A program made the position numbers and the translations under genes. The notes beneath the pieces are model-generated. The model had not been told where the DNA came from. It ran no database searches and saw nothing but the letters and a program-made list of their open reading frames with translations. From the NCBI GenBank assembly GCA_040753955.1, contig JBFMDQ010000007.1, positions 2,303 through 59,234 of the forward strand: a stretch of DNA of 56,932 bases, given 5' to 3'. Below are positions 11,358-49,814 of this stretch, piece after piece (position 1 is the first letter of the stretch; every line of letters begins with the position of its first letter). The stretch comes from Nitrospirota bacterium (GTDB taxonomy: Bacteria; Nitrospirota; Thermodesulfovibrionia; Thermodesulfovibrionales; SM23-35).

Positions 11358-11747
11358 TTAGTCCTTAGTCAAAAGTCGAGAGTCAGGAGTCAAATACTTG
11401 ATAAAGCCTCTAATAAGTTTCGACGTTTCTACGCTTTTAGAATAAAGTCTTTCAAATTCATCTCTGCTTATATAATTCAGGTCTATAGCCACATAAAGTT
11501 GGCTTTGAAACTCAGCATTAGAACCAATAGCAATGTATAAAAATTTTGTAAATTCTTTATCCGTTTGCCTTGCATAGCCCTCCGCAATGTTGCTCATTAC
11601 GGATATTGCAGACCTTCTTATCTGATCTTTTAACGCAAAATCACCTTTGAAGTTTTTATTGTTTTCTGTTAGCTGATATATTTGCTTCACCATTTCCCTT
11701 GCTTTTTTCCACGCTTCAATATCCTCAAATCTTGAGATTTTAGCCAT
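11358..11747 (-). CDS. Four-helix-bundle protein (TIGR02436 / 23S rRNA IVP / bAvd-like), copy 1
   Basis: FEDIEAWKKA, DQIRRSAISVMSNIAEG, FLYIAIGS..E..SQLY.A.DLNYI. Confidence 0.92.
   Translation of the reverse strand: MAKISRFEDIEAWKKAREMVKQIYQLTENNKNFKGDFALKDQIRRSAISVMSNIAEGYARQTDKEFTKFLYIAIGSNAEFQSQLYVAIDLNYISRDEFERLYSKSVETSKLIRGFIKYLTPDSRLLTKD
11360..11394. repeat. 7-nt repeat arm (AGTCnnn x5), complementary to 11762-11789
   Basis: AGTCCTT AGTCAAA AGTCGAG AGTCAGG AGTCAAA. Confidence 0.85.
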
Positions 11748-11749
11748 TT

Positions 11750-12862
11750 TTAAAATGCCTTCTTGACTGCCGACTCTTGACTGCCGACTATATTGACTTT
11801 CACATTTTCAGAAAGGTTCTGTTGACCGACTATGACTACCTTTTCCCCTTCCTTTAACCCTTCAATTATCTCCATCAATTCTCCGTATTTACTCCCAATC
11901 TTTACTTCCCTCTCCCTTGCCCTATCCCCTTCCACGACAAACACCTTTACATTCTCGGCTTCATAAAGAAGAGATGTGACAGGGACAACTACAGTATCCC
12001 TTGCAGCACCCATGTAAAGCGTGACGTGGGCAAAGAAACTTGGTTTCAAAAGCCCGTTTGGATTCGGAACCAATGCCTCTACCTCAAGTGTCCTTGTTCT
12101 TTCTTCAAGGCTTGGATAGATAATGCTTACTTTCCCCTCAAATTCTTTATCAGGGAAGGCATCCACTCTGAAGGTCACATCCTGACCTTTCTTCAATTTT
12201 CCCGCGTCCTTTTCGGTTACAGTAAAATTCAGCTTGAGGGGATTATTCTGGATGATTACAAAAAGATTAGTGCCATTTTTCACATAATCACCTGTCGAAA
12301 CCTTTCTTTCCTTTACAACACCTGATAGAGGTGAATACATTTTTGTCTTTTTGAGTTTCTCTCTTGCAAGGGAAAGTGTTGCCTTTGCCCTTTCTATTTC
12401 AGCCTCAGCGAGAGAGAGCCTCGTTGAGACATCATCAAATTGCTGTTTTGTAACGAGCTCCTCTTTATAAAGGACTTCTTTTCGCTGATATTCTAATTTA
12501 GTATTGGCTAGGGTCGCCTCCGTCTGCCTTAAAGCCGCCTCAGCTCTTTTAACTTCAAGGTTGTAATCAGTATCATCAATCGCCGCCAGAACCATGCCCT
12601 TTGAAACCGCAGTCCCTTCATCAACTCTTACACTCTTTAAACCCCCATCCACCTCTGCACTCACGATAACTTCCTCATAGGGATTCAATGTGCCGATCGT
12701 TTCAACAAAAGGCCTCAGAGGCTTCTTCTCGGCAGCCTTTATGCTCACATTAACTGCCCTTTCTCCTACGGTCTTCACTTCTTTTTTCTTGCAACCAGCA
12801 ACGGATAGTAAACAGTAGACAGAAAACAGTAAACAGAAAACAACAAAAGACATTTTTTTCAT
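11750..12862 (-). CDS. RND efflux periplasmic adaptor (MFP), lipoprotein
   Basis: VAGC lipobox, lipoyl halves, helical hairpin, SPLSGVV, TRT, LLKP. Confidence 0.92.
   Translation of the reverse strand: MKKMSFVVFCLLFSVYCLLSVAGCKKKEVKTVGERAVNVSIKAAEKKPLRPFVETIGTLNPYEEVIVSAEVDGGLKSVRVDEGTAVSKGMVLAAIDDTDYNLEVKRAEAALRQTEATLANTKLEYQRKEVLYKEELVTKQQFDDVSTRLSLAEAEIERAKATLSLAREKLKKTKMYSPLSGVVKERKVSTGDYVKNGTNLFVIIQNNPLKLNFTVTEKDAGKLKKGQDVTFRVDAFPDKEFEGKVSIIYPSLEERTRTLEVEALVPNPNGLLKPSFFAHVTLYMGAARDTVVVPVTSLLYEAENVKVFVVEGDRAREREVKIGSKYGELMEIIEGLKEGEKVVIVGQQNLSENVKVNIVGSQESAVKKAF
11762..11789. repeat. 7-nt repeat arm (nnnGACT x4)
   Basis: CTTGACT GCCGACT CTTGACT GCCGACT. Confidence 0.85.
12803..12851. 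repeat. 7-nt repeat arm (AAACAGT-type), complementary to 13120-13154
   Basis: GGATAGT AAACAGT AGACAGA AAACAGT AAACAGA AAACAAC AAAAGAC. Confidence 0.85.
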
Positions 12863-13104
12863 TTTGACGTTGCTCCCACGAATTTATACAAAAGTTTCCC
12901 TATGACATCGATCTTTCTCAACAGTTCTTCATTTTCAGCTTCTGCTATATTTGCCGGGATCGAAATTGCAGAACGTCGCATCTGAGAGATAAGCCCAAAT
13001 TTTTCTTCATCGGGAAAATTCCTTGTAATTTTATAAATATCAAGTACTAATTCATGTGACTTTTGCCAAACAATCAAATCCTGAAAACTGGTACAAACGC
13101 CCAT
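12859..13104 (-). pseudogene. Four-helix-bundle protein, copy 2, with an in-frame internal deletion
   Basis: FQDLIVWQKSH...FP.EEKFGL.SQMRRSA.SIPANIAE joins directly to the last helix; about 36 aa missing relative to copy 3. Confidence 0.85.
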
Positions 13105-13119
13105 TTTTTCCTCCCGTAT

Positions 13120-13154
13120 GCTGTTTGCTGACTACTGTTTACTGAGTACTGTTT
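13120..13154. repeat. 7-nt repeat arm (ACTGTTT-type)
   Basis: GCTGTTT GCTGACT ACTGTTT ACTGAGT ACTGTTT. Confidence 0.85.
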
Positions 13155-14463
13155 TTAACAGTGTTCCCGTTGCCCGTTCTACCCTCAAAATAGCTAACTC
13201 ATAATTATATTGTGCATCTGATAATTGCCTTTCTGATGTAAGCAACAACGTATTAGCATCAATAACATCTATGCTATTGGCAAGGCCAAATTCATATTGC
13301 CTTGAGATGGAATTATAGTTGTCCCTGGCAAATGTAACTTCATCTTCAAGGGATTTCAAAACACCTTTTTGCGTCATAAAGTCAAGGTAAGCGTTTTCTA
13401 CTTCAATATTTATTGTCTTTCTTAAATCTTCATAAATAAGTTCAGATTGCCTCTGTCTTGCTTTTGCTTCCCTCACTTCAGCCCTTCGGAGACCTCCCTC
13501 GAAAAAAGGGAAGTTTAGCGTTAGTCCTCCATAAATGCTTTCTTTAAGAAAAAACGGGGAGGCTGGGTCTTCGTCTTTCCCTGAATAAACACCCTCAACA
13601 CAAAGGGTTGGCCAGTACGCCCCTTTTGCATATTTAACCTGATCTTCTGCAATTTTCTTCTGGAGTTCGGAACTTTTAAGCTCTGCCCTTTGCATTCTCG
13701 CCTCTTCTCGTAAAGAAGGCAAAAAAAGATAAACGGGTTCTTCTAAAGGTGTTTCCTTAAGAGTATATTCTTCGTATATTCCAACAATTCTTGCAAGAAC
13801 TGCCTTTGCAAGCTTGAGGTTGTTTTCTGCCTTTACCATCTCAGATTGTGCGCCTGAAAGCTCCGCCTCTGCCCTCAGGAGGTCAGTCTTTGTTACTTCG
13901 CCAACCTTAAGCCTTATAGCTGCCGCATCCCTGTGCTTTATTAGCCTCTCCATATTTGCCCTCGCAATCTCCAGAGCCTTTTTCGCCCTTAGGACATCAT
14001 AATAGGCTGAGGCAATGCTGAAAAGATAGCCTTCTCTTACTGCATAGAGGTCATATCCGCTCTTCTCAATGTTTTCCTTCGAGATTTTAAAAGCCTTTAG
14101 TTCTTTACCACTTAAGGACATTGACTGGTCAAGCCTTAATCCCCATGATGTAGAATAATCAGGTTGAATAACCCATGTGCCGGTTGTTTTAGCTTCACTA
14201 TACCTCGTATAATCCCAGAAAGTAGAAAGTTTGGGAAGGAGCACCGAAAGAGCCTTATCCTTTCCTCTTTCTGCGATATAAACGCCCTCTTCTGATATTT
14301 TTATTACCTCAGCGCGCTCAAGGGCAATCCTGTATAGGTCATCGAGTGAATATTCCTGGGCAAAAGTATTTTCGGTGCCTGAGGCTACGATATAAAAAAT
14401 AAATGCAACAAGGGTGCAGGTTATCAATTTAAACAACCTGTTGTAATTCCTCCTTCCGGTCAT
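13132..14463 (-). CDS. TolC-family outer membrane efflux protein
   Basis: Signal peptide, two OEP repeats, P.FEGG, YEFGL...DVIDA. Confidence 0.92.
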   Translation of the reverse strand: MTGRRNYNRLFKLITCTLVAFIFYIVASGTENTFAQEYSLDDLYRIALERAEVIKISEEGVYIAERGKDKALSVLLPKLSTFWDYTRYSEAKTTGTWVIQPDYSTSWGLRLDQSMSLSGKELKAFKISKENIEKSGYDLYAVREGYLFSIASAYYDVLRAKKALEIARANMERLIKHRDAAAIRLKVGEVTKTDLLRAEAELSGAQSEMVKAENNLKLAKAVLARIVGIYEEYTLKETPLEEPVYLFLPSLREEARMQRAELKSSELQKKIAEDQVKYAKGAYWPTLCVEGVYSGKDEDPASPFFLKESIYGGLTLNFPFFEGGLRRAEVREAKARQRQSELIYEDLRKTINIEVENAYLDFMTQKGVLKSLEDEVTFARDNYNSISRQYEFGLANSIDVIDANTLLLTSERQLSDAQYNYELAILRVERATGTLLKTVLSKQ

Positions 14464-15077
14464 TAGCCTTCTCCTTTTACCTGATGTTTATCTTTTAGGG
14501 TGCCATTTACAAATATATCAACAAACTCTCCTATTGTCTTTTCCGTCTCCCTTCTGGAGATATTGCGCCTCTTTACAATCTCTTCAGCCTTGAAATAGGA
14601 GAAGATCATCCCGAGAAATGCCCTGGCAGCTATTCTATTGGAAAAATTCCTGAGTAAACCCGTTTTCTGCAGAGACCCAAGATAATTCGCAAGAGTTTGT
14701 ATAAGTTCATCAATGAAACCGTTGTAGACCGCCCTGATCTTATCTGGATAGATATTCATCTCAGAAAGCATAATCATAATCAGAGGTTTCCGCTCCTTAA
14801 GGGTCTCAAGAAACCTTATGCCTACTAACCTAAGCGCCTTATCAAAGGAAAGCCCCTCAAGCTGGAGCAGGAGTTCCCTTAGTTTAGGCAGGAAGGTATA
14901 TCTCTTGAGAACCTCCTCAAAGAGCTTTTCTTTAGAGCCAAAGTGTCTGAAGAGAGTAAGTTCCGTAACACCTGCCTCCTGGGCAATCTCCCTTGTTGTG
15001 GCCCCAAGATAGCCCTTCTCTGAAATCAATCGCAGAGTTGCCTCTAAAAGCTTCTCCTCAGTGTTAGGCTTCTTCAT
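14463..15077 (-). CDS. TetR/AcrR-family regulator
   Basis: [25 protein letters not shown] helix-turn-helix. Confidence 0.95.
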
Positions 15078-15081
15078 TATT

Positions 15082-15097
15082 GTAAGTAATTACTTAC
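15082..15097. promoter_or_regulatory. Probable TetR operator
   Basis: Perfect 16-bp palindrome GTAAGTAATTACTTAC, 4 nt upstream of the tetR ATG; TTGACT on the minus strand at 15115-15120. Confidence 0.75.
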
Positions 15098-15152
15098 TAT
15101 AAAATGAGCTAAGAAGTCAAGGGAAAACTTGAAAGACTAAATTTGTAAGAGG

Positions 15153-15503
15153 TTATTTAACGCTGAGAATTTTATTCTTCTCGTCAAGTAGGACTATCTT
15201 TGGCTTGAATCTCTTTAGCTTATTATCTTCAACATAGCTGTAACAGAAGATTATAATCTTATCTCCAATAATACCTTTTCTTGCGGTAGGGCCATTAAGG
15301 CAGACCTCACCCCTCTTGCCAGGTATCACATATGTCTCAAATCTTTCTCCGTTATTAAGATTACTTACCATCACCTGTTCATATGGAAGTATCCCTGCCT
15401 TTTTTAATATCTTCTCATCTATGGTAATACTGCCCTCATATGACAGGTTTGACTCTGTAACTGTTGCCATATGTATCTTTGCCCTAAGTATGCACCTTAA
15501 CAT
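15153..15503 (-). CDS. panD: Aspartate 1-decarboxylase
   Basis: KIH.ATVT..L.YEGSITID (Gly-Ser cleavage site), NGERFETY, CLNG. Confidence 0.95.
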   Translation of the reverse strand: MLRCILRAKIHMATVTESNLSYEGSITIDEKILKKAGILPYEQVMVSNLNNGERFETYVIPGKRGEVCLNGPTARKGIIGDKIIIFCYSYVEDNKLKRFKPKIVLLDEKNKILSVK

Positions 15504-15535
15504 GACAGTATCCTTTTCTTATTTAATTATGCATC

Positions 15536-15754
15536 TTGGCATATAACAAATTCAAGTGTCCAACCCCTGCCGGGGAAAACAAAAAGACAACCAAATGGTT
15601 ATTGAACTTTGCTGAAGAAGTAAATAAGATAAATATGAGATTTAAAGATGAACTTAAAAAGGCTTTTGACCGCTTTGAAGAAAAGGAGCTGGTTATCGAA
15701 AGGAATCCTGAATTATTTTCAGTTGCTATAATCATAACAAAGAATAAATCATGA
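15536..15754 (+). other. Short ORF or gene remnant coupled to the R-M gene
   Basis: 72 codons, TTG start without a Shine-Dalgarno; stop overlaps the R-M ATG (ATGA). Confidence 0.3.
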
Positions 15755-18700
15755 AGGCCCACCGAAATAGAGGACTTTTCTCAAATTATTACTTGGATGA
15801 ACTACTTCCAAAAGAGGATGAATTCAAAGTTTCCATTTCTGTGGTCAAAGGTGTCTATGAGAAAGTCAAAGGGATTTGGGATAAAAGCAGATTTGAAGCC
15901 ATCAACGAAGATCAACTAAGAAAACATTTTCTGGATAAAGTAATGGATTGCCTGGGATGGGTGGTAGATGTTAACGCTCCTGTCCCGGTAGGCGAATGGT
16001 CAAAGCGGCCTGACTATGCCTTCTTTCAGGATAGTGAGACTTTAAAATCTGCACATAAGGGTAAGAAGGAAGATTACTTCAAGAAAACTATATGTGTTGC
16101 TGAAGCAAAGCGGTGGGGAAGACCTCTCGACAGAAAACTTAAGACAGAGGCCGATCCACTTGAGGTTCAGAACCCATCGCTTCAGATTAGCCGTTATTTA
16201 TGGCTTACCGGTGTTAAGTGGGGAATTCTTACAGACGGAAAATACTGGCGGCTTTATGAACGTGAGACTTCAAAGAGGCTCGACATTTTTTATGAAATTG
16301 ACCTTGAAGATCTTATAGAATCAGGCTCGCCTGAAGATTTCCGATATTTCTATCTTCTCTTCCGTAAGGATGCCTTTCCTGAATTCATAGAGAAGGTCTA
16401 TAAAGGGAGCGTTGATTATGCAGAAGCTGTTGGCGAGGAACTCAAAGAGAATATTTATCAGGCTCTTAAAATATTGTCACAGGGATTTTTGAAAACGCCT
16501 GGCAATAATCTTTCAGAAGCTAACTTAAAAGAAACCCATGATAATTCTTTGATCTTGCTTTATCGTCTTCTTTTCATCCTCTATGCAGAGTATCGTAGTC
16601 TTCTTCCCATCGGAGTGAACAGGCTTTATACCGAATCATACAGTCTGGATGCCTTTAAAAAGGAGATTTCAAACAGGCTTGATAAAAATGAGCCCATTGC
16701 TATCTCGACTTTTAGCTACTGCAACAAACTGAAAGAGTTGTTTGAGATTATTAATTTTGGCAACAAAGAACTCGAAGTTCCTCCTTATAATGGTGGTCTT
16801 TTCGACTCGGAAAAACATACATTTCTCGAAAAACACAGGGTGGGTGATTTCTTTGTTGCAAGAGCGATTGATCTCCTTTCACGCTCAAGGGACAAGGCAT
16901 ACATTGATTACGGAAGCCTTGAAATAAGACATCTGGGCTCTATCTATGAGGGGCTTCTCGAATACAAACTGAGGATTGCAGAAGAAAATATTATTCCTCT
17001 GAAGGATAAAGGCAAGGAAAAGTTTGTCTCTCTTGAGGAGGCAAAAAAGCAGAAGAAAATCAGAGAAGATGAGATAGTTCGAACAGGAGAAATGTATCTC
17101 GTAACAGACAAAGGTGAGCGTAAGGCTACCGGTTCTTATTACACCCCTGATTATATTGTGAAGTATATTGTTGAAAATACTCTTGGACCTCTGGTAGAGG
17201 AGAAAAGGAAGCAGGTCTCAGAAAATATTAAGAATCTGAGAGAAAGAATCAAAGTATCAAGAGGTCTGAACAGAGAACTGCTTGAAAAAGAACTCAAAAA
17301 GGTTGAAGGGACTTTAATAGATGAGATTCTTTCATTAAAGGTGCTTGACCCTGCAATGGGGAGCGGTCATTTTCTTGTCGAAGCTACAGATTTTCTGGCA
17401 AGGGAATTATTGAAAGTCTTGAGTGGAGAACCGCTTGATAAGCACGCAAAAGAAATGGTTATTAGTGAAACCCTGGAACCATACGGTCTGAAAGAACCAG
17501 AGGAAGAAGACATAAGATGGGCAAGACGTGAGGTTGTAGAGAGATGTATTTTCGGAGTGGATTTAAACCCGATGGCAGTTGAACTTGCAAAACTATCCCT
17601 GTGGCTTTACACCGTTGCAAAGAACAGACCCCTTAATTTCCTCGACCATCACTTAAGATGTGGAAATTCTCTGATTGGAGCAAGAATAGATGACCTGGCA
17701 GGCCTCCCCAAAATAAAAAAGAAAAAGAAAGCGCCTGAAGGGCAACCTGTTCAGCTTGGTCTTTTCGAAAGTGTCTTTAAAGAAAAGGTAAATATTCTTC
17801 TTGGTGCATTTGCTCAGATTGAATCACTTCCTTCCGATACAGTCGAACAAATAAGACAGAAAGAGAAACTTTATCAGGATTTCAGGAAAATCGTCTCTCG
17901 GTTTCAGGATGTGGCAGATGTCTGGACCAGCAATTATTTTGGGAATGAAATAGATTTTGGAAAATATCAGGGCCTTCAGGATAAGCTTCGTTCCCCTGAT
18001 AAGGAATGGGAAAGCTTAGGCCATGAGCCATGGTTTAAAAAAGCAAAATGGATCGCAAATGAAAAAAGATTCTTTCACTGGGAACTTGAATTTCCAGAAG
18101 TCTTTTTTGAAGGGCACCTGAGAAAAGAAAATCCAGGATTTGATGTAGTTGTTGGGAATCCACCATATGAAAGGACTAAATATCTCATCCAAGATCAAAA
18201 TGTTTATGATCAATTTTTTAAAACTGCTTTTGGTGCTTATGACATTTATGTACTTTTTATGGAGAAATCACTTTCGCTTATTTCATCTATTGGAAGATTT
18301 TCATTTATAGTATCCAATAAATTTCTTATATCAGATTATGGAGACAAATTAAGGAATTTGCTCTGTGAAGAATATAATGTTTCGCAATTAATCGATCTGA
18401 CAGAATGCCCAAGTGTATTCAGGGATGCACTAATTAGTCCGGTAGTGATAGTTGCAAGTAAAATTAAATCAGATTTTGTTTATATCGCTGTGTTTAAAAA
18501 AGATTTACCCGAAGAAATATCCAAACTTTATGATCTGTTCTATCAGTGTACTGACAGCTTGGAGACTGATCTTGTGGATGTTGAGCGAAGGTTGCCCAAA
18601 GAATTAAGACATCCAGAAACAGGACATTTCAATATTTATTTAGTCGGCAATAAGAAACGTTTAGAAAGGAAAATATATTCAAAATCTCTACTATTAAAGA

Positions 18701-25988: not shown

Positions 25989-25996
25989 TTTACAAC

Positions 25997-26099
25997 AGTT
26001 ATAAGTTATGAGTTATGAGTGGAGAGTTTAATACAAAATGCATTTTATTTATTCTTTCCTTTTTTAACTTTTAACTTTAAACTTCTCACTTTTAACTTT
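25997..26099. repeat. Empty inverted 7-nt repeat element at the glmU-glmS junction
   Basis: AGTTATA AGTTATG AGTTATG AGTGGAG AGTTTAA ... TTTAACT TTTAACT TTAAACT TCTCACT TTTAACT. Confidence 0.8.
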
Positions 26100-27487
26100 C
26101 TTTTAAGTGCCCAATCTTCGATATGCCTCTGTTGTACCCTACTCAAGGCAAGGGCCATGGAAGGGACATTTTTTGTTATAGTAGAACCTGCACCAATGTA
26201 TGCGCCCTCACCTATTTTTACAGGCGCAACAAACTGGGAATCACTTCCTACAAAAACGTTGTCTTCGATAACTGTAATATGCTTTTTGTAACCATCATAG
26301 TTACAGGTTATTGTACCTGCACCTATGTTAACATTATTCCCTATCTTTGAATCTCCAAGATAAGTAAGATGGCCTGCCTTTGTACCGGAGCCTACTACTG
26401 ATTTTTTAACCTCAACAAAATTACCTATCTTTGCACCTTTCCCAATCTCAGAACCCGGCCTTATGTGAGTGAAGGGTCCCACAGAGGCCCTATTCTTTAC
26501 AACAGACCCCTCGATAAGAGTCGAATCTTTGATAACGACCCCATCACCTATGATGCTGTTATGAATCCGAACATTTGGATATATTGTGCACCCCCTTCCA
26601 ACTTTTGTGTTACCCTCGAGATGAACATTTGGATAGATGAGCGTATCTTTACCTATCTCAACATCTGGAGATATAAATACTGAAACGGTATCCATGAAAC
26701 TCACGCCTCTGTCCATCCATCTTTTAATGATCCTGTCTTTCATTAACTGCCGGACCCTCTCAAGCTCCTCCTGAGTATTCACCCCCATCAACTCATCCTC
26801 GGAGCCGGTGCAACAAGCATTTACCTTTATCCCCTTATTCCTTGCAATACTAATCATGTCGGTCAAGTAATATTCACCTTTTGATTCATTTAGCTTTATC
26901 TCTTTTAGAATGGGAAGGGCCTCAGACTCAATAGCATATATTCCGCTGTTGACTTCCTTTATATTCTTCTGTAGATCCGTGGCATCCCTATCCTCAACAA
27001 TGGATGTTATATTACCTGCCTCACCTCTTATAATCCTGCCATATGAACCTGGCTCTTTAGCCATAAACGAGAGTATTGAAATAACATTACCTTTCTTCTT
27101 ATGGAGGGTTAAAAATTTCTTGAGGGTCTCTCGAGTAATAAGGGGAATATCTCCATTGATAACAATAACTGTTCCTTTAAATCCTTTGAGAGCTGGCCAT
27201 GCCTTCAGGAGTGCATCTCCTGTGCCTTTTGCCTCCTTCTGCTGTGCAAAAGAGATTGAACTATCACCCTTTATAGATTCCCTTATTTCCTTAAAATGTT
27301 TTCCTGCTACAACAACAATCTTTTGCGGTTTAAGTCCATAAAGGGTATTTAAGACATACTGAAGCATTGGGGTGCCATGAATTTTGTGGAGAACCTTTGG
27401 TAAAGATGAATTCATCCTCTTTCCAAGCCCTGCAGCCAGGATGACACCTGCTAACTTCAGAACGTTGCTATTAGCTACGTTCTTCAC
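26045..27487 (-). CDS. glmU: Bifunctional UDP-GlcNAc pyrophosphorylase / acetyltransferase
   Basis: LAAG.GKRM.S..PKVLH, GEYYLTD, hexapeptide repeats, CNYDG. Confidence 0.97.
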   Translation of the reverse strand: MKNVANSNVLKLAGVILAAGLGKRMNSSLPKVLHKIHGTPMLQYVLNTLYGLKPQKIVVVAGKHFKEIRESIKGDSSISFAQQKEAKGTGDALLKAWPALKGFKGTVIVINGDIPLITRETLKKFLTLHKKKGNVISILSFMAKEPGSYGRIIRGEAGNITSIVEDRDATDLQKNIKEVNSGIYAIESEALPILKEIKLNESKGEYYLTDMISIARNKGIKVNACCTGSEDELMGVNTQEELERVRQLMKDRIIKRWMDRGVSFMDTVSVFISPDVEIGKDTLIYPNVHLEGNTKVGRGCTIYPNVRIHNSIIGDGVVIKDSTLIEGSVVKNRASVGPFTHIRPGSEIGKGAKIGNFVEVKKSVVGSGTKAGHLTYLGDSKIGNNVNIGAGTITCNYDGYKKHITVIEDNVFVGSDSQFVAPVKIGEGAYIGAGSTITKNVPSMALALSRVQQRHIEDWALKRKLKVRSLKLKVKKGKNK

Positions 27488-28861: not shown

Positions 28862-28878
28862 GATTATTTCTCCAAATT

Positions 28879-28990
28879 AAATAACCAATAATCAATAACC
28901 AAACATCAAATAAGCTCCAATTACTAATAACCAGACAAATGTCTGCTTATTGTAATTTGGTCATTGGATATCATTTGGTTATTGGTAATT
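28879..28990. repeat. Empty inverted 7-nt repeat element (ATAACCA/TGGTTAT) in the yebC leader
   Basis: ATAACCA-type units followed by TTGGTTA-type units; near-identical left arm at 46466. Confidence 0.85.
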
Positions 28991-34524: not shown

Positions 34525-34526
34525 AA

Positions 34527-34622
34527 ATGGCAGTTACCAGTCGGCAGTCAACAGTTGTTAGTCAGATATCAAAAGGAAAGACGTCTTTGACTGCGGACTA
34601 TCGTCTATTGACTATCGACTGA
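34527..34622 (+). repeat. Empty inverted 7-nt repeat element forming a 31-codon bridging ORF
   Basis: CAGTnnn x5 (34531-34565) and nnGACTn x5 (34587-34621); ATG at 34527 to a TGA overlapping the argC ATG. Confidence 0.8.
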
Positions 34623-40346: not shown

Positions 40347-42458
40347 CTAAAGAGTAGCACGGAGCTTTGAAAAATCTGCAATAGTTGAGGCGGTTCTCCA
40401 GACCTCTTTCAGCAATGCCAGCCTGTTCTGCCTTATCTCTTCCCGTTTGTCCATCACAAGGACATGGTCAAAGAAATGGCTAACTGGATCTGTAAGGGAG
40501 GAGAGGAGACTGATTACATTATAATACCTTTTTTCCTTAAGAAGGACAGGGAGATCAGATTTTACATAATCGAGTTTTTCCTTAAGCCTCTTCTCAGCCT
40601 CTTCTATAAGGAGTTCTGCCTTTAATTCAGGAATTACCTCCTTCGGAATAATATTATTAACGCGTTTCATTGCGAGGAGGAAATTGTTGTAATCCTTGTC
40701 CTCTTTTAATCTCTTCAGGGCGTCAAGCCTTCCCTCTATTTCCTTTAGATGTAAATCAAGCGACATGGAAAGGATTGACTGTACAAGGTCAGGACTATAT
40801 CCCTTGCCAGAAAATAGGGGTTCAAGCCTCTGCTCGAAGAACTGAAAGATTTTTTCCTCTATCTCCCCCAGCGAGGGGAATACACTTGACAAGTTCTGTA
40901 AGGCCTTGTCTATCAGATCTCTCAGGGGTAGATGATAGCCCCTCTCTAACAGTATCGCTATAATTCCGAGTGCCTGCCTTCTAAGGGCAAAAGGGTCTTC
41001 AGAGCCTGTAGGTGTAAGCCCTATAGAAAAAAAGGCAGCTATATTATCTATTTTATCAGCTATGCTGAGAAGTGCTCCAACTTCTGTCTGTGGAAGTATT
41101 CCGCCTGAATGTGCTGGAAGATACTGTTCTTCCATAGCTTCTGCAACCTCGCTGTCTTCTCCATCATGCATAGCATAGTATTTACCCATGATTCCTTGTA
41201 GTTCAGGGAACTCCCTTACAATCCCTGTTAAGAGGTCTGTTTTTGAAAGCCATGCAGCACGAGCAAGCTTGCCTTTTACAGAAGGCGAAAGCCTCTCAGC
41301 AAGAAACTCCGCAATAGAGACCGCCCGTTCTGTCTTTTCATATAGACTTCCGAGTCTCTCCTGGTAGGTAACTTTTCTTAGTTCCTCTATCCTCTCATAA
41401 AGCAGTTTTTTTCTGTCCTCTTCGAAATAAAATTTTGCATCCTCAAGCCTTGCCTTAATAACTCGCTCTGCGCCAATCCTAACTGTCTCTTCATTTTCTT
41501 CTTTTGTATTGCTTATGACAATAAAGTGATTGATCAGTCTGCCTTCTCCATCTTCTATAGCAAAGCATCTCAGATGGTCCTTCATGACTGTAATAAGTAA
41601 TTCTTTTGGAAGTTCCAGATATCCTTTCTGAAAGCTACATAGCACAGGGAACGGATATTCAACAAGGAAATTAACTGTCTCGATGAGTTCTTCATCCTCT
41701 ACGGGTTTACCCTCTGCTGAAGCAGAAAGCCTCCTGACGCCCTCAAGAATTGTCTTTTTTCTTTCTTCCTGGTCGAGGATTACAGAGCTGTTTTTGAGAA
41801 GGTTTGTGTAAGTCGATATCTCTTCCACCTCAAATGCGGCTGGTGAAAGGAAACGGTGCCCCCATGTCATGTTACTGCTTTTTATTCCGTCAATCTCAAA
41901 AGGAATGACATCCTTACCAAACATCGCTAATAGCCAGTGTATTGGCCTGGCAAATCTAATACTACCATTTCCCCATCTCATGGTCTTAGGGAAGCGTATT
42001 GAAAGGGTAATCTTTTTTAATACTTCTGGCAGAAGGTCTCTAACAGCTAACCTTTTCTCTTCAATCACTGCAGCCACATATTCGCCCTTATCCCTCTTTT
42101 TTACAATAAGACTCTCTACATTTACTCCTTGAGAGTTCGCAAACTTCAAGGCTGCCTCTGTTGGATTGCCTTCCTCGTCAAAGGCTACCCTTTTTGCAGG
42201 ACCGAATACCTCCCTCGCACGGCCTGCCTGTAGCTCTGGCAATCTAGCAACTATAAGAACAAGTCTTCTCGGTGTTGCATAGGCCTTTATTTCTGAAAAA
42301 TGGATATAGTTTTCACTCAGGATTGTGGCAGCATTTTCCTTTAAGCTCTGGATTGCCCCAGGCAGGAACCTTGCAGGTATCTCCTCTGTGCCTATCTCCA
42401 ACAATAGTGAGGAGTGAGGAGTGAGGAGTGAAGGGTTATTTTTAATGTCATGATTCAT
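40347..42458 (-). CDS. glyS: Glycyl-tRNA synthetase beta subunit
   Basis: LLEIGTEEIP, TPRRL, F.RP..W, EFPELQG.MG, DPFALRR. Confidence 0.97.
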   Translation of the reverse strand: MNHDIKNNPSLLTPHSSLLLEIGTEEIPARFLPGAIQSLKENAATILSENYIHFSEIKAYATPRRLVLIVARLPELQAGRAREVFGPAKRVAFDEEGNPTEAALKFANSQGVNVESLIVKKRDKGEYVAAVIEEKRLAVRDLLPEVLKKITLSIRFPKTMRWGNGSIRFARPIHWLLAMFGKDVIPFEIDGIKSSNMTWGHRFLSPAAFEVEEISTYTNLLKNSSVILDQEERKKTILEGVRRLSASAEGKPVEDEELIETVNFLVEYPFPVLCSFQKGYLELPKELLITVMKDHLRCFAIEDGEGRLINHFIVISNTKEENEETVRIGAERVIKARLEDAKFYFEEDRKKLLYERIEELRKVTYQERLGSLYEKTERAVSIAEFLAERLSPSVKGKLARAAWLSKTDLLTGIVREFPELQGIMGKYYAMHDGEDSEVAEAMEEQYLPAHSGGILPQTEVGALLSIADKIDNIAAFFSIGLTPTGSEDPFALRRQALGIIAILLERGYHLPLRDLIDKALQNLSSVFPSLGEIEEKIFQFFEQRLEPLFSGKGYSPDLVQSILSMSLDLHLKEIEGRLDALKRLKEDKDYNNFLLAMKRVNNIIPKEVIPELKAELLIEEAEKRLKEKLDYVKSDLPVLLKEKRYYNVISLLSSLTDPVSHFFDHVLVMDKREEIRQNRLALLKEVWRTASTIADFSKLRATL
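42406..42433. repeat. 7-nt repeat arm absorbed into the glyS N-terminus
   Basis: AGTGAGG x3 plus AGTGAAG; encodes PSLLTPHSS. Confidence 0.8.
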
Positions 42459-43361: not shown

Positions 43362-43470
43362 GTTTCTTAGTTTATTTAGTTTACCTGGTTTACCCAGTTT
43401 ATTGTGTTTACGAGCTCTTAATAAACCCAAGAAACGCAACAAACTTGAGAAACTCAAGAAACCAACAAAA
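43362..43470. repeat. Inverted 9-nt-period repeat element in the glyQ leader
   Basis: GTTT at 43370/79/88/97/43406 and AAAC at 43423/32/41/50/59. Confidence 0.8.
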
Positions 43471-44685: not shown

Positions 44686-44846
44686 TGTTGTTCTTTGTCT
44701 TTGTCCTCTGAATCTATTAGCTCAGCATCCTTTCGGGTACTGACTCCTTTGTTAAAACGTCGCTGCCTTTTCTCCTCCTGCTTTTTCAGACGGGACAGTT
44801 CTTTTCTCCTCTTTTCACTTTTATATGCCCCAGCATGTTTTACCAT
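44682..44846 (-). CDS. Small basic hypothetical protein (54 aa)
   Basis: EKRRKELSRLKKQEEKRQRR; AAGGGGG Shine-Dalgarno before ATG 44846. Confidence 0.7.
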   Translation of the reverse strand: MVKHAGAYKSEKRRKELSRLKKQEEKRQRRFNKGVSTRKDAELIDSEDKDKEQH

Positions 44847-44977
44847 GTGACCCCCTTGATTTATAGTCATAATAGCATGGAGAACAAGTTTAATGCTAAA
44901 CCTTTATGGTGATCACTCATTCAATACTTTTGCCGTAAGCCTTGGAATCATGAACATTTCAAACCTTGTAGAAAGTA

Positions 44978-45116
44978 TTTACCCCGCACCATGCCAGAAT
45001 GCCCTAACCTTTGGTTGGGGATGAATAGCACTATAGATTTTCCTTATTGCAAGGGTGGGTTTAAAGCCCCACCCTTGCAGCCCCTGCAACATGCGTTAGC
45101 ATGGTGCGGGGTTTAC
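44978..45116. mobile_element. TTTAC-bounded miniature element with IS200/IS605-like internal hairpins
   Basis: 14-bp perfect inverted repeat ACCCCGCACCATGC (44981-44994 / 45099-45112); hairpins at 45001-45020 and 45047-45080. Confidence 0.65.
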
Positions 45117-45176
45117 TTTTTATTTTCAAGTATGTTATCTTTTTCTACAAGTTTCAGAAGTTTTTGTAACTGATAA

Positions 45177-45212
45177 GGCCACAAAGACTTTTAGGCTTTG
45201 TGGCCCTTTTTT
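45177..45212 (+). promoter_or_regulatory. Terminator-like hairpin in the csp 5' leader
   Basis: GGCCACAAAG-N9-CTTTGTGGCC followed by CTTTTTT, 52 nt before the ATG. Confidence 0.6.
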
Positions 45213-45264
45213 GTTAGGCTAAGTTCATTCTGAGACTTTAGTCTATGTGTAAGGAGGTAAAAAG

Positions 45265-45465
45265 ATGGCTAAAGGAACAGTTAAGTGGTTCAATGAGTCC
45301 AAGGGTTTTGGCTTTATCACACGCGATGACGGCAGTGACGTTTTTGTCCACTATTCCTCTATCCAGGGCAACGGATTTAAGTCTCTTGCCGAGGGTGATA
45401 CAGTCAGCTTTGATGTTGAAAAAGGCCAAAAAGGTCTTAAGGCAATCAATGTGATTAAACTTTAA
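45265..45465 (+). CDS. cspA: Cold-shock protein
   Basis: GTVKWFN..KGFGFI, DVFVH; 66 aa. Confidence 0.95.
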
Positions 45466-45473
45466 TTGACGGC

Positions 45474-45502
45474 AAAAGCCCCCTGTTAAACAGGGGGCTT
45501 TT
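45474..45502 (+). terminator. Intrinsic terminator
   Basis: AAAAGCCCCCTGT-TAA-ACAGGGGGCTTTT. Confidence 0.8.
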
Positions 45503-45518
45503 ATATTGAAAGGAGAAA

Positions 45519-45905
45519 ATGGCACACAAACAAAATTATGTGGAAAGGATGGAACTGAACAAACAACTCAGACGTGCATCTGGTTTGGTCTCTGAACGCT
45601 TTCCTGAAGTTTCAGGCATAGTAATTCATATGACTTACTATCATAAAGGAGTAAGTCCTATTCTCATGGTGCGCACTGTTAATTTCTTCCCCTCTGGTTA
45701 TGCATATTTTAATATGGACTGCATGATAAAGGGCTGTGTCGGCGGTGGTTTTGATTTAACCTCAGTGATTACTGATATGATTAAACATCATAAGAAGTTG
45801 GGAAAGGGAAAACTCGTTTGTAATGGAAAAGGTGATACCCTTGCCTCTGACCATGCAAGCATTGCCTACGAAATCAGGATACAGTACAACAAACAGTCTC
45901 AATAA
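45519..45905 (+). CDS. Hypothetical protein with a Cys/His cluster
   Basis: AAGGAG Shine-Dalgarno; CxxxxCxGGGFDL...C...H. Confidence 0.75.
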   Translation: MAHKQNYVERMELNKQLRRASGLVSERFPEVSGIVIHMTYYHKGVSPILMVRTVNFFPSGYAYFNMDCMIKGCVGGGFDLTSVITDMIKHHKKLGKGKLVCNGKGDTLASDHASIAYEIRIQYNKQSQ

Positions 45906-45906
45906 C

Positions 45907-46449
45907 CTAACTGATTTTATCAAACTCCCTCTTAAAGTATCCCAGTGTAAGGTCGTCATAGACACAGAATTCTATGAGTTCAAGGCTGCTCTCTGGATCC
46001 TTCTCTGTATAATTCACCGCCTCTTTTACCAGTATTTCAGCGCATCTATCCTTGGGGAATCCAAAAATACCAGAGCTTATTGCAGGTATAGATATGCTCT
46101 TTAAGCCCCTTTCTGATGCAAGCATAAGACTGTTCAAAATAGCACTCTCCAGCTTATTATCCTCATCTCCTTCACCCATCCTCGGACCAACTGCATGGAT
46201 GACGAATTTTGCAGGTAACTTCCCCGCACCTGTAATAACTGCGGTGCCAACAGGTGTATACCCTATTTTGTTACTCTCTTCCTGTATTATTTGACCCCCT
46301 TTCCTTACAATAGCGCCTGCGACTCCTCCACCATGCTGAAGCCAAGAATTGGCCGCATTTACTATCGCATCTACATCTCTCTCTGTAATGTCTCCCTGAA
46401 CAAGCCTCAGGGTTTTCCTGTTAATGGTTTTCTCAGAAATAACCTTCAT
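45907..46449 (-). CDS. Macro-domain protein (YmdB-like)
   Basis: GDIT, AIVNAAN..L.HGGGVAGAI, VIHAVGP, PAISSGIFGFP; AGGGAGG before ATG 46449. Confidence 0.93.
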   Translation of the reverse strand: MKVISEKTINRKTLRLVQGDITERDVDAIVNAANSWLQHGGGVAGAIVRKGGQIIQEESNKIGYTPVGTAVITGAGKLPAKFVIHAVGPRMGEGDEDNKLESAILNSLMLASERGLKSISIPAISSGIFGFPKDRCAEILVKEAVNYTEKDPESSLELIEFCVYDDLTLGYFKREFDKIS

Positions 46450-46465
46450 AAACCTCCCTTTTTTA

Positions 46466-46596
46466 AAATAACCAATAATCAATAACCAAGCACCAAATAA
46501 GCTCCGATAATCAATTCATCAAATAAGCACCGTGTTGGTTATTGGTAATTGAATATTGGTCATCATTTGGTTATTGTAATTTGGTGATTGGTTATT
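46466..46596. repeat. Empty inverted 7-nt repeat element (ATAACCA/TGGTTAT)
   Basis: First 40 nt match 28879-28918 at 38 positions; complementary TGGTTAT arm. Confidence 0.85.
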
Positions 46597-46656
46597 CCCG
46601 TTCCCGCTCCGGTTATTTAACCATTATGATATAATATAAAAAATTGGAGGGTATAA

Positions 46657-48315
46657 ATACCAGCACTCTACGGAAATCTGACAGGGCTCAAGGCCAGCTA
46701 TCTTAACTCCCTCGAGAGGGTTTACCGGAGAAAGGTACATAGCGAGATAGTCACCCCCGAGCTTGGAAGATACCTTACTGAGCTCTCTTCTGAAACAGGT
46801 CGCCAAGTAGGCATTCTCATTGACAGGGATGGCACTATTACCCATGTAATTGTTGGTGATGCAAAGGGAATCGTTATTCCTCCGCTTGAGGATTATCCTG
46901 TAGGAAGAAGGGCTTTAAGAGGACTCAGGCTTGTGCATACCCACTTGAAAGAAGAGCCCCTCAATCGAGATGACCTTACTGACCTTGCCTTATTAAGGCT
47001 CGACCTCATAGCAGCAATATCTGTAAAAGATGGGTTACCAGGAAATATCTACGTAGCACATCTAATGCCTTCGGGCTCAGAAAAGGAAATAGAAGTACTA
47101 CCCTCAAAAAATTTCTATGCCTTTAAACTGGATTTTAATCCCTTTATACAATCTCTCGAAGAGGAGATGGAAAGGGCGATAATCTTTGACCAGAGAGATG
47201 GGAAAGAAAGGGCGATACTGGTAAGTATTTCGACAAGACCAAGATATGAGCAGGAAGATTCTGTAGAAGAGCTAAAGGAGCTTGCCCGATCAAGCGATGT
47301 AATCGTCCTCGATGCTGTTATCCAGAGACCAAAGGAGATTAACCCGAAATATCTTATGGGTGAAGGAAAGCTTAAAGAGCTCATTATGAATGCCATGAAT
47401 AAAGGTGCAACACTTCTGATATTTGACCAGGACCTGAGCCCATCTCAGGCAAAGGCAATAGCAGAGTCCACTGAACTTAAGGTAATAGACCGCACGCAGC
47501 TCATCCTGGATATCTTTGCGAGGCGTGCACACAGTAAGGATGGAAAGGTACAGGTTGAACTTGCACAGCTCAACTACAGGCTACCAAGGCTTACGGGTAA
47601 GGGGACAGCTATGTCCCGTCTGATGGGAGGAATTGGTGGAAGAGGACCCGGAGAGATGAAACTTGAGGTAGACAGGAGGCGGGTACGCGAGAAGATAAAC
47701 CTGCTCGAGAAAGAACTGAAGTCTCTAAGCGAGGCAAGGCGACAGAGGAGACATAAAAGGGTTCGGAGAGACATTCCGATCGTCTCCATTATAGGGTATA
47801 CCAATGCTGGAAAATCAACGCTCCTCAATGCCCTTACGAAGAGCTCTGTATTTATCGAAGACAAGATGTTTGCAACCCTCGACACCTCAAGCAGGCGCTT
47901 GAGGTTCCCGAGAGAGAGGGAGGTTATTATTACCGATACTGTTGGCTTCATAAGAAACCTTCCAAAGGATCTAATAGCAGCATTCAGAGCAACCCTTGAG
48001 GAGCTCGAGGATGCTGACTTATTATTGCACCTTGTTGATGTCTCAAACCCCCGTTTTGAGCAGCATATAGAATCTGTAGATAAAATACTCGAGGAGCTTC
48101 ATCTGTCCGAGAAATGGAAGCTTCTTGTCTTTAATAAGATAGACAGATTAGGTAATGAAGAGGCACAGAATCTCGCCCTGCGCTATGGCGCAGTCGCAAT
48201 CTCAGCACTCGATTCGTCAACATTTCAGCCCCTTCTAAATGCTATAGAAGAACGGGTCTTCTTGCCTCGGCGAGTCTTTGATAGTAATGGAAAACTGGCA
48301 GAAATGATAAGGTAA
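46657..48315 (+). CDS. hflX: Ribosome-splitting GTPase HflX, long form, probable ATA start
   Basis: Frame open from ATA 46657 ([12 protein letters not shown]...[10 protein letters not shown]...HTH); [21 protein letters not shown]. Confidence 0.92.
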
Positions 48316-48331
48316 CGCTAAGGCAGGTCAG

Positions 48332-49390
48332 ATGGAATTTACCCCCAAATGGATTGCATGGGAGATTACGAGGAGATGTAATCTTAAGTGCATACACTGC
48401 CGTTCTTCATCTGAAATAGAAGTAAAAGACCACCCTGATTTCTCCACAAAAGAGGCATTCAGAATCATAGAGGACATTATCGGTTACGCAAGACCTGTTG
48501 TTGTCCTTTCAGGGGGCGAGCCACTTCTCAGGGAGGACGTGTTTGATATTGCAAAATATGGCACAGATAAAGGCTTGAGGATGTGTCTTGCTACAAATGG
48601 TACACTCGTCAGGGATGATGTCTGCAATAAAATGAAAACATCAGGAATAAAGATAGTCTCTCTTAGCATTGATGGCTCAACAGAAAAAGCACATGACAAT
48701 TTCAGGAACCAGAAGGGTGCCTTCGATGGGAGTATAAGGGCAGCAAGCCTTTTTAAAAAACATGGTATCGAGTTTATCATCAATTCATCCATCACAAAGA
48801 GAAATCAGGAAGAGATTCCGAGAGTATATAAACTTGCGAAAGAAATCGGGGCAACGGCATGGTATATGTTTATGATAGTACCCACGGGCAGGGGTGAGGA
48901 GATAATGAATGAGCTTATTTCTAAGGAGGATTATGAGAAAATCCTCGAGTGGCATTACCAGATGGAAAAGGATGAAAAGGACATACTTGTAAGGCCTACA
49001 TGTGCGCCGCATTATTACAGGATAGTCTTTCAGAGGTCACGACAAGAGGGTGTTAAGTTTGAAAGGAGGACACTGAAATTTTCGACAGGTGGAGCTAAGG
49101 GTTGTATTGCTGGACAGGTTATATGCTTTATAGATGTTGATGGTAATGTGCTCCCTTGTAGTTACCTTCCTAAACCTGCAGGAAACATTAAAGAGCAATC
49201 CTTCAAAGATATATGGGAGAACTCGGAGCTCTTTAAAGAGCTCCGAGACTTCAAAACATATAAAGGCAAGTGCGGTTCGTGCGAATATATAACTGTCTGC
49301 GGAGGATGCCGCGCAAGGGCGTATGCCGTATATGGTGATTATCTTGAGGAAGAACCATTCTGCAGCTATATACCACGTAAATTGAAGTAG
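48332..49390 (+). CDS. Radical SAM/SPASM enzyme, AhbD/NirJ-like (heme biosynthesis)
   Basis: [31 protein letters not shown]....VCGGCRARA; upstream of hemE. Confidence 0.8.
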
Positions 49391-49412
49391 TAAGTAGAAA
49401 GTAGTTAGTAGT
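49385..49412. repeat. 7-nt repeat arm (AAGTAGT x4), complementary to 49780-49814
   Basis: AAGTAGT AAGTAGA AAGTAGT TAGTAGT. Confidence 0.9.
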
Positions 49413-49429
49413 TAAGGGAGGAAATAGAA

Positions 49430-49780
49430 ATGGAAAGTGCAAAAACATTTAAAGATTTGGTAGTCTGGCAAAAAGCACATGAACTTGTAATTGAAGTCTA
49501 TCGGACAACAAAACTGTTCCCTTCCGAGGAAAGATTCGGTCTTGTATCACAGATGAGGCGTGCAGCTGTATCCGTACCTGCTAATCTTGCAGAAGGTTTT
49601 GTAAAGAGAAGTATAAAAGATAAAAGCAATTTCTATAATATGTCTCAGGGATCGCTCGAGGAGCTGAAATATTATTTCATTTTATCGGAAGATCTCGGTT
49701 ATGCAAAAAATGAACGTCTGGCATTAAAGGCTGATGAAGTAGGTAAATTGCTTAATGGGTTATTATCTTCTTTATCCTAA
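49430..49780 (+). CDS. Four-helix-bundle protein (TIGR02436 / bAvd-like), copy 3
   Basis: FKDLVVWQKAH, FP.EERFGL.SQMRRAAVSVPANLAEG, GSLEEL.Y...LS.DLGY. Confidence 0.93.
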   Translation: MESAKTFKDLVVWQKAHELVIEVYRTTKLFPSEERFGLVSQMRRAAVSVPANLAEGFVKRSIKDKSNFYNMSQGSLEELKYYFILSEDLGYAKNERLALKADEVGKLLNGLLSSLS

Positions 49781-49814
49781 CTACTTACTACTTACTACTA
49801 ACTACTTGCTACTT
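49780..49814. repeat. 7-nt repeat arm (ACTACTT x5)
   Basis: ACTACTT ACTACTT ACTACTA ACTACTT GCTACTT. Confidence 0.9.

Follow-up and report, generated by a model that had tools for sequence, protein, structure and literature searches.

Within a 56,932-nt stretch of a Nitrospirota genome, hereafter the window (positions 2303 to 59234 of contig C7 of the source genome, G000), three genes of the PF05635/TIGR02436 four-helix-bundle (4HB) family each lie between two inverted arrays of heptanucleotide repeats. These units are probably insertion cassettes of the intervening sequence (IVS) type, about 0.45 kb in size, in which a PF05635/TIGR02436 gene is enclosed by inverted arrays of about 4-7 heptamers. 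Such cassettes are oriented co-directionally within transcription units (operon junctions, tRNA spacers and CRISPR arrays), and both gains and losses of them occur over the lifetime of a genus. Where the open reading frame (ORF) has been lost, empty heptamer hairpins and single arrays stay behind, and the arms of at least one family are now present in dozens of copies. The source genome comprises 1.69 Mb in 80 contigs with 42% G+C and is 97.8% complete. It was compared with 31 related genomes, designated by G numbers, of which G001 is a congener.

All three genes are found where the first-pass annotation of the window placed them, and their products score far above the family cut-offs (24 bits for TIGR02436, 33.8 bits for PF05635). 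The gene of locus 1 (11358-11747, minus strand, 129 aa; TIGR02436 121.9 bits, PF05635 124.9 bits) and that of locus 3 (49430-49780, plus strand, 116 aa; 113.3 and 121.0 bits) are full-length. The gene of locus 2 (12859-13104, minus strand; 70.5 and 78.9 bits) is, by way of correction to that annotation, a truncated copy of 81 aa, the product of which matches positions 1-49 of the TIGR02436/PF05635 profile only, that is, its first half. Locus 1 is situated between the genes for an RND adaptor and an AcrB-type pump, locus 2 between the genes for an outer membrane protein (OMP) and the RND adaptor, and locus 3 between a radical-SAM/SPASM gene and hemE; all three 4HB genes share the direction of their neighbors. 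The 4HB gene is the sole ORF of each unit, with neither an encoded transposase nor any Pfam family beyond PF05635/bAvd inside it, and in this respect the earlier proposal of a transposase-free element holds.

Each locus carries two arrays of about 4-7 heptamers that are mutual reverse complements, and the repeated unit is specific to the locus. Read on the transcribed strand, the 5' arm of locus 1 (about 11757-11803, minus strand; 11761-11789 in Tandem Repeats Finder) consists of AGTCnnn units and overlaps the last codons of the adaptor gene, while its 3' arm (11352-11394) consists of nnnGACT units and overlaps the last codons of the 4HB gene. At locus 2, likewise on the minus strand, AAACAGT-type units make up the 5' arm (13116-13154), which overlaps the 3' end of the OMP gene, and the 3' arm (12804-12853) codes for the hydrophobic core of the adaptor lipoprotein signal peptide. 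At locus 3, on the plus strand, 4-5 copies of AAGTAGT form the 5' arm (49382-49419) and contain the stop codon of the upstream gene, and five copies of ACTACTT form the 3' arm (49768-49817). The arms run into coding sequence at the adaptor C-terminus, the OMP C-terminus, the adaptor signal peptide and the 4HB C-terminus. As an observation in its own right, the 3' arm of a decayed cassette (12804-12853 in the window, and likewise at this junction in G001, G003 and G004) now serves as the signal-peptide core, and 5' arms supply lysine- or serine-rich C-terminal tails to upstream genes.

The pairing of the arms is far stronger than their composition would yield. Arm-arm duplexes reach -37.6 kcal/mol at locus 1 (z = -6.6), -37.1 kcal/mol at locus 2 (z = -5.1) and -36.1 kcal/mol at locus 3 (z = -6.0), as against shuffled means of -14 to -17 kcal/mol, and none of the 300 shuffles made for each arm pair attained the real value. 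Minimum free energy folds of the whole elements place 26-29 bp between the first and last 55 nt, so that the complementary arms described earlier for the three loci are borne out. A duplex calculation on the 120-130-nt flanks of all ORFs (RNAduplex) was dropped as non-discriminating, the median control already lying at -37 kcal/mol.

The association of arms and gene extends throughout the source genome. TIGR02436 has 12 matches in G000, of which eight show complementary arms when inspected by eye and two are cut by contig ends; the remainder are a fragment pair that represents one gene interrupted by another element, and a longer protein that matches only weakly and has no arms. Flanks were scored for inversion with a +1/-1 scheme, which replaced a +1/-2 scheme that was too harsh for the variable positions of the units, at a threshold of at least 14, and controls were drawn from a crude set of longest-ORF calls (10 4HB ORFs and 1694 others). 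The threshold was reached by 7 of the 10 4HB ORFs versus 22 of the 1694 others (Fisher p = 2e-11), and period-7 arrays occur on both flanks of 6 of 10 versus 24 of 1694 (p = 4e-9). Among the 22 scoring controls, five are Y1 transposase genes with terminal repeats of their own and one is a 4HB remnant. The placement of arrays relative to these crude gene calls was not used for any claim.

The same association is seen in relatives and in distant phyla, with shifted positions in the same loci serving as decoys. The family is present in 26 of the 31 related genomes, and inverted flanks accompany 29 of 46 4HB loci in related genera versus 3 of 96 decoys; units of 6, 8 and 9 nt were also seen among these loci. 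In a broad sample, obtained by a pattern search limited to one genome per species, 80 loci were returned from at least 600 matched stretches (594 confirmed) and 78 could be scored, two having too little flank; 57 of the 78 show inverted flanks, versus 1 of 298 decoys. This sample covers Bacteroidota, Acidobacteriota, Chloroflexota, Planctomycetota, several proteobacterial classes, Nitrospirota, Omnitrophota, Firmicutes, a lineage of the candidate phyla radiation (CPR) and others, and the best period is 7 in most of its loci. Plasmids of Nostoc punctiforme and Trichormus variabilis, for example, carry a 4HB gene between TCAGGAG-type arrays. Arrays adjoining 4HB genes have a median of 5.7 units. 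The architecture therefore marks the family as a whole in many phyla, and the enrichment of arms around TIGR02436 genes, which the first-pass annotation proposed to test, was found at each of these three scales.

Heptamer arrays are also abundant away from the gene in some genomes. At a lag-match of 75%, G000 contains 275 arrays of period 7, compared with 29 of period 6 and 16 of period 8; at 70%, 370 period-7 arrays were found, which merge to 351; these comprise 170 distinct canonical units, and their median length is 39 nt. In 194 kb of flank outside the broad-sample cassettes the corresponding counts of arrays are 65 (period 7), 6 (period 6) and 11 (period 8). Chance or low complexity is excluded as an origin of the arms by this comparison of periods, by the shuffles, by the other ORFs and by the shifted decoys. 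The density of free arrays in relatives was estimated from 100 kb sampled from each of eight genomes. Four genomes without a 4HB match have 0 (G025, G021), 1 (G020) and 2 (G028) period-7 arrays per 100 kb. Of the four with such matches, G024 (seven matches) has 17 per 100 kb, beside 16 in G000, and G019 and G008 (five matches each) have none and G002 (two matches) has 1. The 4HB genes of G019, G008 and G002 have arms despite this near absence of free arrays, which argues that the arms travel with the gene and that gene and arms form one unit, as had been suggested; plentiful free arrays are a trait of some hosts only.

The places at which the cassettes are found have transcription in common. 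Of 71 broad-sample loci, 60 have both neighbors in the same orientation as the 4HB gene. In G018 and G011, an orthologous cassette separates two tRNA genes, and the spacers of a tRNA cluster in G000 hold empty hairpins. Beside the contig-edge 4HB copies of G000, Rfam models detected tRNAs only and no rRNA, and the neighbors in the window are protein genes. In G001, G009 and G024, cassettes with their own heptamer arms are situated between or inside CRISPR repeats, in the position of a spacer (L066 on contig C141 and L071:2392-2870 on contig C66 of G001; L135 of G009; L039 and L127 of G024); in L066 the start of the cassette recurs after two normal repeat-spacer units. On a Picosynechococcus plasmid, a 4HB gene with its own arms lies between cas10 and cmr3. 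The accessible part of PMC3936711 counts 18 PF05635 genes in cas loci, and the accessible portion of PMC10910872 shows the 23S_rRNA_IVP family as cas-associated. Judged from their sequence context, the PF05635 genes at CRISPR loci look like cassette insertions with their own arms and not like functional cas partners.

A second gene can occupy the same architecture. At the hemE junction of one relative, a GxxExxY gene (TIGR04256, 109 bits) stands between CACAGAT arms, and another genus has those arms empty. Inverted arms of a similar unit accompany 3 of 4 GxxExxY loci in the relatives. GxxExxY genes with CACAGAG/CACAGAT-type arms were noted at L044:1974-2381 (G003), L148, L149 and L150; G000 itself has no GxxExxY (TIGR04256) gene. 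Because GxxExxY is an unrelated second cargo of the same architecture, the arms are not specific to the 4HB protein. Other cargo was sought in G000 among inverted array pairs 100-1600 nt apart without a 4HB gene, and this candidate was rejected: such pairs are two separate hairpins around ordinary genes (DUF2905, pseudopilins, tRNAs).

Comparison of G000 with its congener reveals turnover. Five junctions could be compared, and G001 has an intact 4HB gene at none of them; the presence/absence polymorphism anticipated between relatives exists between these congeners. The loci on contigs C16 and C48, for which no synteny with G001 was found, fall outside this comparison. At the hemE junction the flanks are 96.5% identical, and G001 lacks the 416 nt of cassette and any hairpin, and has only one copy of the unit sequence. 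At the adaptor-pump junction, G001, G010 and G007 have in common the naive state, an overlapping stop and start; since exact reversion to such an overlap is unlikely, the G000 cassette at this junction represents a gain. At the OMP-adaptor junction, G001 has arms around about 110 nt of unrelated sequence. We also observed that in G001 and G007 (L141, L145) the approximately 110 nt that replace the gene there contain a common short GC-rich stem-loop, which may be another small repeat family. At the C55 junction, the hairpin of G001 is empty and built from another unit, and G007, a member of another genus, has an 86%-identical ortholog with the unit family seen in G000. Single contigs in one run of another study that join 49375 to 49830 (skipping 454 nt, side 36) and 49412 to 49778 (skipping 365 nt, side 28) would be a cassette-free and an empty allele of locus 3; they were not counted, owing to their short sides, the likeness threshold of 85 and the repetitive nature of the arms.

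Intermediate states indicate how empty hairpins arise. At the C6 junction, contig C94 of G001 retains both long arms and the last 25-30 nt or so of the ORF, and its allele is a plain internal deletion. The OMP-adaptor junction offers a graded series across genera: the 81-aa remnant in G000, a smaller remnant of the same gene in G004, an empty hairpin in G003, one arm in G010 and the naive state in G005 and G021. Taken together, the empty hairpin with an ORF 3' end and this series show that at least some empty hairpins derive from filled cassettes and not the other way round. The hemE junction is more varied still, being naive, one-armed, empty, 4HB-filled or GxxExxY-filled depending on the genome.

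One arm family has spread well beyond its gene. The arms of the C6 cassette, of CCAATAA type and about 60 nt each, match 28 sites in G000 (86-100% identity over 23-85 nt) and give about 70 high-scoring segment pairs in G001. Full copies of this family are hairpins of 120-150 nt with matching termini, and two of them lie in the window. The first-pass annotation had regarded the empty hairpins as non-autonomous derivatives or scars, and both parts of that description have found examples, in the deletion derivative of G001 and the decay series on the one hand and in this arm family, resembling miniature inverted-repeat transposable elements (MITEs), on the other. Further 4HB fragments are present in G000. 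Eight of its 12 4HB matches fall within 1.5 kb of a contig end, a zone that makes up 14% of the genome (p = 4e-5), an excess that fits either population polymorphism or assembly breaks induced by repeats. As a separate observation, C28:110-370 and C46:2-157 are two fragments of one 4HB gene at two contig ends, separated by an element with terminal inverted repeats of about 21 nt; they are thus a cassette gene interrupted by another mobile element.

Gene-less hairpins are found in the window as well. Long hairpins of the multi-copy CCAATAA arm family lie beside yebC (28874-28990, z = -4.1) and between the macro-domain gene and the hflX-type GTPase gene (46462-46590, z = -4.2), and an empty hairpin with AGTC-type units lies between rpsI and argC (34529-34620, z = -2.8, with 2 of 300 shuffles reaching the real value). 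These three had been listed in the first-pass annotation and are present; the one reported at glmS-glmU (25991-26100) is only weak (z = -1.4, 28 of 300 shuffles), and the glyQ-glyS junction, described as a partial case, holds a single array of 3.7 copies of AGTGAGG without a complementary partner (42399-42441). The neighboring genes are those that had been named for these sites and for the three gene-bearing loci: OMP, adaptor, pump, radical-SAM-SPASM, hemE, glmS, glmU, rpsI, argC, yebC, macro, HflX-type GTPase, glyQ and glyS. Throughout G000, neighboring arrays less than 100 nt apart are inverted in 39 of 65 pairs and direct in 7, the inverted pairs being empty hairpins. Two local observations may be added. 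In the pseudopilin (type II secretion-like) operon at C8:9147-10775, A/T-rich heptamer hairpins of a common unit family occupy three successive junctions, and at window positions 43378-43462, between glyQ and the divergent next gene, there are two period-9 arrays that are not complementary heptamer arms.

The encoded protein is maintained by selection. In nine ortholog pairs dN/dS ranges from 0.03 to 0.17, four more pairs being saturated at synonymous sites, and these values indicate purifying selection on the 4HB protein. Across 18 aligned members, Q41, S48, N52, E55 and E78 are invariant and R44 and W13 are conserved in at least 90%, in agreement with the family motif GxxRxxxSxxxNxxE given in the accessible text of PMC3936711. 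The closest solved chain is 2GSC (Xcc0516; E = 1.4e-21), and this homolog is cited in that same text as a pentamer of four-helix bundles. The 4HB genes have no PADLOC match, and a reading of them as a defense system was dropped for this reason. Heptamer copy number differs between orthologous cassettes; orthologs nevertheless keep the unit family even at dS above 1, and 6 of 9 syntenic pairs that are at least 65% identical share the unit. The statement that architecture is conserved and sequence is not thus stands for architecture across phyla and fails for orthologous loci, where the unit family persists even at saturated synonymous divergence.

These features suggest how such a cassette might be tolerated and might persist. 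By analogy with 23S rRNA IVSs, the arms would pair in the host transcript as a stem of about 26-30 bp and would then be cut by RNase III, the gene for which is present in G000 (245.7 bits). The cut would free the cassette RNA and leave the adjoining cistrons, tRNAs or crRNAs usable, so that insertion at such places would be tolerated. Excision from RNA, one of the fates first envisaged for the element, is plausible on account of this shared anatomy, RNase III being the enzyme that cuts there. The pentameric protein may act on the repeated arms in a way that favors upkeep or spread of the cassette; with about 5-6 units to five protomers, one unit per protomer is geometrically plausible. Complementarity of the arms may be renewed in DNA by slippage and by templated copying between arms. 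The 351 merged arrays of G000, like the thousands of short tandemly repeated repetitive (STRR) arrays of cyanobacteria, could be largely cassette debris or non-autonomous derivatives.

Whether the arms are shaped in RNA or in DNA can be approached from their substitutions and composition. In 97 gene-oriented arm pairs there are 2670 Watson-Crick positions, 120 of the G·U type and 160 mismatches of the A·C type. The hairpins have a constant polarity, which is most marked as an excess of G over C in the 5' arm, seen in 50 of 54 informative broad-sample loci. Stop codons in all three reading frames are also commoner in the 5' arm (35 of 57) than in the 3' arm (12 of 57; sign test p = 5e-4), a bias for which empty, AT-rich hairpins in G000 give no support. 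Among the hairpins of G000, A predominates in the 5' arm and T in the 3' arm. The suggestion that the element spreads through RNA is not upheld, since no PF00078 reverse transcriptase was found in the 97.8%-complete G000.

Several observations weigh against this account of the cassettes and must be set beside it. The sense strand shows no G·U excess in the 97 arm pairs, so that complementarity is not explained by selection on sense RNA alone; DNA-level copying or recent origin fits it better. The units of locus 1 pair at a 4-nt core only and would make a poor substrate for RNase III. Non-syntenic loci share the arm unit in 0.8-7% of cases in every bin of protein identity, and this failure of unit to track protein, together with the GxxExxY cargo, argues against strictly cognate recognition of arm by protein. 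Within a genome, 4HB paralogs are less than 60% identical, duplicates in CRISPR arrays excepted, and recent transposition of gene-bearing cassettes inside one genome is therefore not indicated. The two best gain junctions show no clear target-site duplication, 3-4 nt being readable as duplicated in ambiguous alignments. Arms fall below threshold at 21 of 78 broad-sample loci and at 17 of 46 related loci. Finally, the authors of the Coxiella study, as far as the accessible text of PMC4990558 goes, consider the IVS ORF there to be unexpressed, decaying and expendable, unlike the cassette ORF described here, which is under purifying selection.

The most serious alternative, which we consider unlikely, is that the arms are host hairpins resembling STRR sequences, grown in place by slippage and quasi-palindrome correction for RNA stability, processing or translational coupling, and that 4HB and GxxExxY genes are separate selfish ORFs that landed or survived in their loops. 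This alternative would agree with the coincidence of the first 5'-arm unit with sequence in cassette-free genomes (hemE, OMP C-terminus, adaptor-pump), with different units at one junction in different genomes (hemE, C55) and with one-sided single arrays in C-terminal tails (G004, G007). Two unrelated cargo families in one architecture point the same way, as does the setting of the empty hairpins: 33 of the 37 with genes on both sides lie between co-directional genes, compared with 1227 of 1677 adjacent gene pairs overall. Possible roles of STRR hairpins in stability or coupling are also raised in the accessible part of PMC2670836. However, genomes without a 4HB gene have 0-2 arrays per 100 kb, and the 4HB genes of G019, G008 and G002 are armed although free arrays number only 0-1 per 100 kb there. 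The G001 hairpin that retains an ORF 3' end and the decay series show descent of at least some empty hairpins from filled ones, and the lack of G·U excess likewise tells against this alternative. Sharing of units between resident cassettes and free arrays in G000 says little, given that a random free array already shares its unit (with at most one mismatch) with a median of 24 others.

A less probable alternative holds that the hairpins are DNA elements moved in trans by Y1 (HUH) transposases of the RAYT (REP-associated tyrosine transposase) or IS200 type, in the manner of REPINs, hairpin-forming elements built from repetitive extragenic palindromic (REP) sequences, and that the 4HB protein has no role in mobility. 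Y1 enzymes act on single-stranded DNA hairpins, and G000 has five Y1_Tnp genes of about 320 aa (C2:262-1224, C6:8266-9225, C25:19522-20484, C28:8407-9372 and C58:4488-5360), for which the best NCBIfam model is the REP-associated tyrosine transposase (52 bits, cut-off 80). Moreover, the five of the 31 relatives that lack a 4HB match (G020, G021, G025, G028, G029) are five of the six that lack a Y1_Tnp match. This co-distribution is one among kin and may only separate genomes rich in mobile elements from poor ones. The Y1 genes have short inverted repeats of their own and not heptamer arrays, their number is unrelated to the density of free arrays (per 100 kb, 1 array in G002 with 22 genes and 17 in G024 with one gene), and G006 has an armed 4HB cassette and no Y1 match.

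It is very improbable that the 4HB proteins are Avd-type accessory proteins of a diversity-generating retroelement (DGR) or other reverse-transcriptase system in which the arms would serve, as RNA, in the synthesis of cDNA. One survey (PMC10053308, from the accessible part) found no Pfam family more often near DGRs than PF05635, and two Avd-type models match weakly (NF033474 at 26-30 bits, PF22296 at 26-33 bits), but both matches are below cut-off (80 and 40 bits, respectively), no PF00078 gene was found anywhere in the 97.8%-complete G000, the neighbors are housekeeping genes and PADLOC returns no match.

Insertion cassettes of the IVS type therefore remain the reading that we favor. A bolder version of it, which we put forward as doubtful, would make the 4HB pentamer the only dedicated factor of transposase-free mobile cassettes. 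It would read the heptamers, one per protomer, on single-stranded arm DNA or RNA and thereby promote hairpins, arm homogenization and spread; STRR sequences, 23S rRNA IVSs and CRISPR-associated IVP genes would be its products and the Avd of DGRs a domesticated offshoot. A literature search confined largely to the main text of openly accessible papers turned up none in which heptamer arms are connected with PF05635 outside rRNA, or STRR sequences with PF05635. The PF05635/TIGR02436 family is very large (at least 600 stretches matched, 594 confirmed) and has no assigned function. If its members are the cargo of one type of cassette, this would tie together the origin and the sporadic spread of rRNA IVSs, open questions since the early 1990s, and, if true, would also connect the nature of cyanobacterial STRR sequences, the recurrent "association" with CRISPR loci and the ancestry of the DGR Avd. 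A rule for annotation would follow, namely that a heptamer hairpin at a gene junction is the trace of an earlier cassette insertion and can give neighboring genes C-terminal tails and signal peptides. Apart from these matters, the AcrB-type pump gene of the window (8250-11352) is broken at 9582-9613 into a pair of overlapping ORFs that match Pfam ACR_tran at positions 2-575 and 574-1020, and the break coincides with a perfect 16-nt tandem duplication that apparently shifts the frame.

Comparison with known systems places the cassettes among several repeat and intervening elements. The Avd protein of DGRs is a four-helix-bundle pentamer that binds nucleic acid. The cassette protein has a homologous fold, a relationship of Avd to PF05635 that is noted in the accessible part of PMC10053308, and differs in its genomic setting, in matching the Avd models below cut-off and in that no reverse transcriptase was found in G000. 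Like REP and REPIN sequences, the hairpins are abundant, extragenic and palindromic, lie at gene junctions and occur in genomes with Y1 transposase genes; unlike in REPIN/RAYT systems, the RAYT-like genes here are flanked by non-periodic repeats, and the heptamer hairpins carry another gene or none. With MITEs and their master elements the cassettes share inverted arms, gene-bearing and gene-less forms, dozens of dispersed copies and presence/absence polymorphism, whereas they have no transposase and show no clear target-site duplication at the two best gain junctions, their arms are family-specific tandem arrays and their gene-bearing copies are old.

The STRR sequences of filamentous cyanobacteria are 7-bp tandem hairpins between co-transcribed genes, without a known function according to the accessible text of PMC2670836. 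The hairpins described here resemble them in being tandem 7-bp hairpins between co-directional genes, and the 4HB genes of Nostoc and Trichormus are themselves flanked by such arrays. In contrast to STRR sequences, which have been treated as free-standing repeats of one cyanobacterial group, the present elements reside in a non-cyanobacterial host, and the nearest named relatives of their proteins are not cyanobacterial.

The closest parallel is with the IVSs of 23S rRNA known from Leptospira, Coxiella and CPR bacteria. As described in the accessible portion of PMC4990558 (Warrier et al. 2016), the IVS of Coxiella burnetii contains an S23p ORF and terminal inverted repeats that form a 28-bp stem, has 3-4 tandem GACAGAT units upstream of the ORF in a number that varies between strains, and is cut by RNase III at the first repeat, in the heptamer stem; its origin and function are called unclear there, and mobile-element hypotheses are quoted. 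An S23p-type ORF also occurs in insertions of the 16S and 23S rRNA of CPR bacteria, as the available part of bioRxiv 10.1101/2024.02.27.582315 indicates. The cassettes have in common with these IVSs the protein family, a size of about 0.43-0.45 kb, a terminal stem of about 28 bp, tandem heptamers in variable number beside the ORF, a host transcript that is processed anyway and a sporadic distribution suggestive of mobility. They differ in location, since 23S rRNA IVSs occupy helix 25 or 45 and the cassettes lie in mRNA junctions, tRNA spacers and CRISPR arrays, and they go beyond them in having heptamers on both arms family-wide, empty derivatives and multi-copy arm families. The anatomy of the cassettes matches that of the published 23S rRNA IVS of Coxiella, in another setting.

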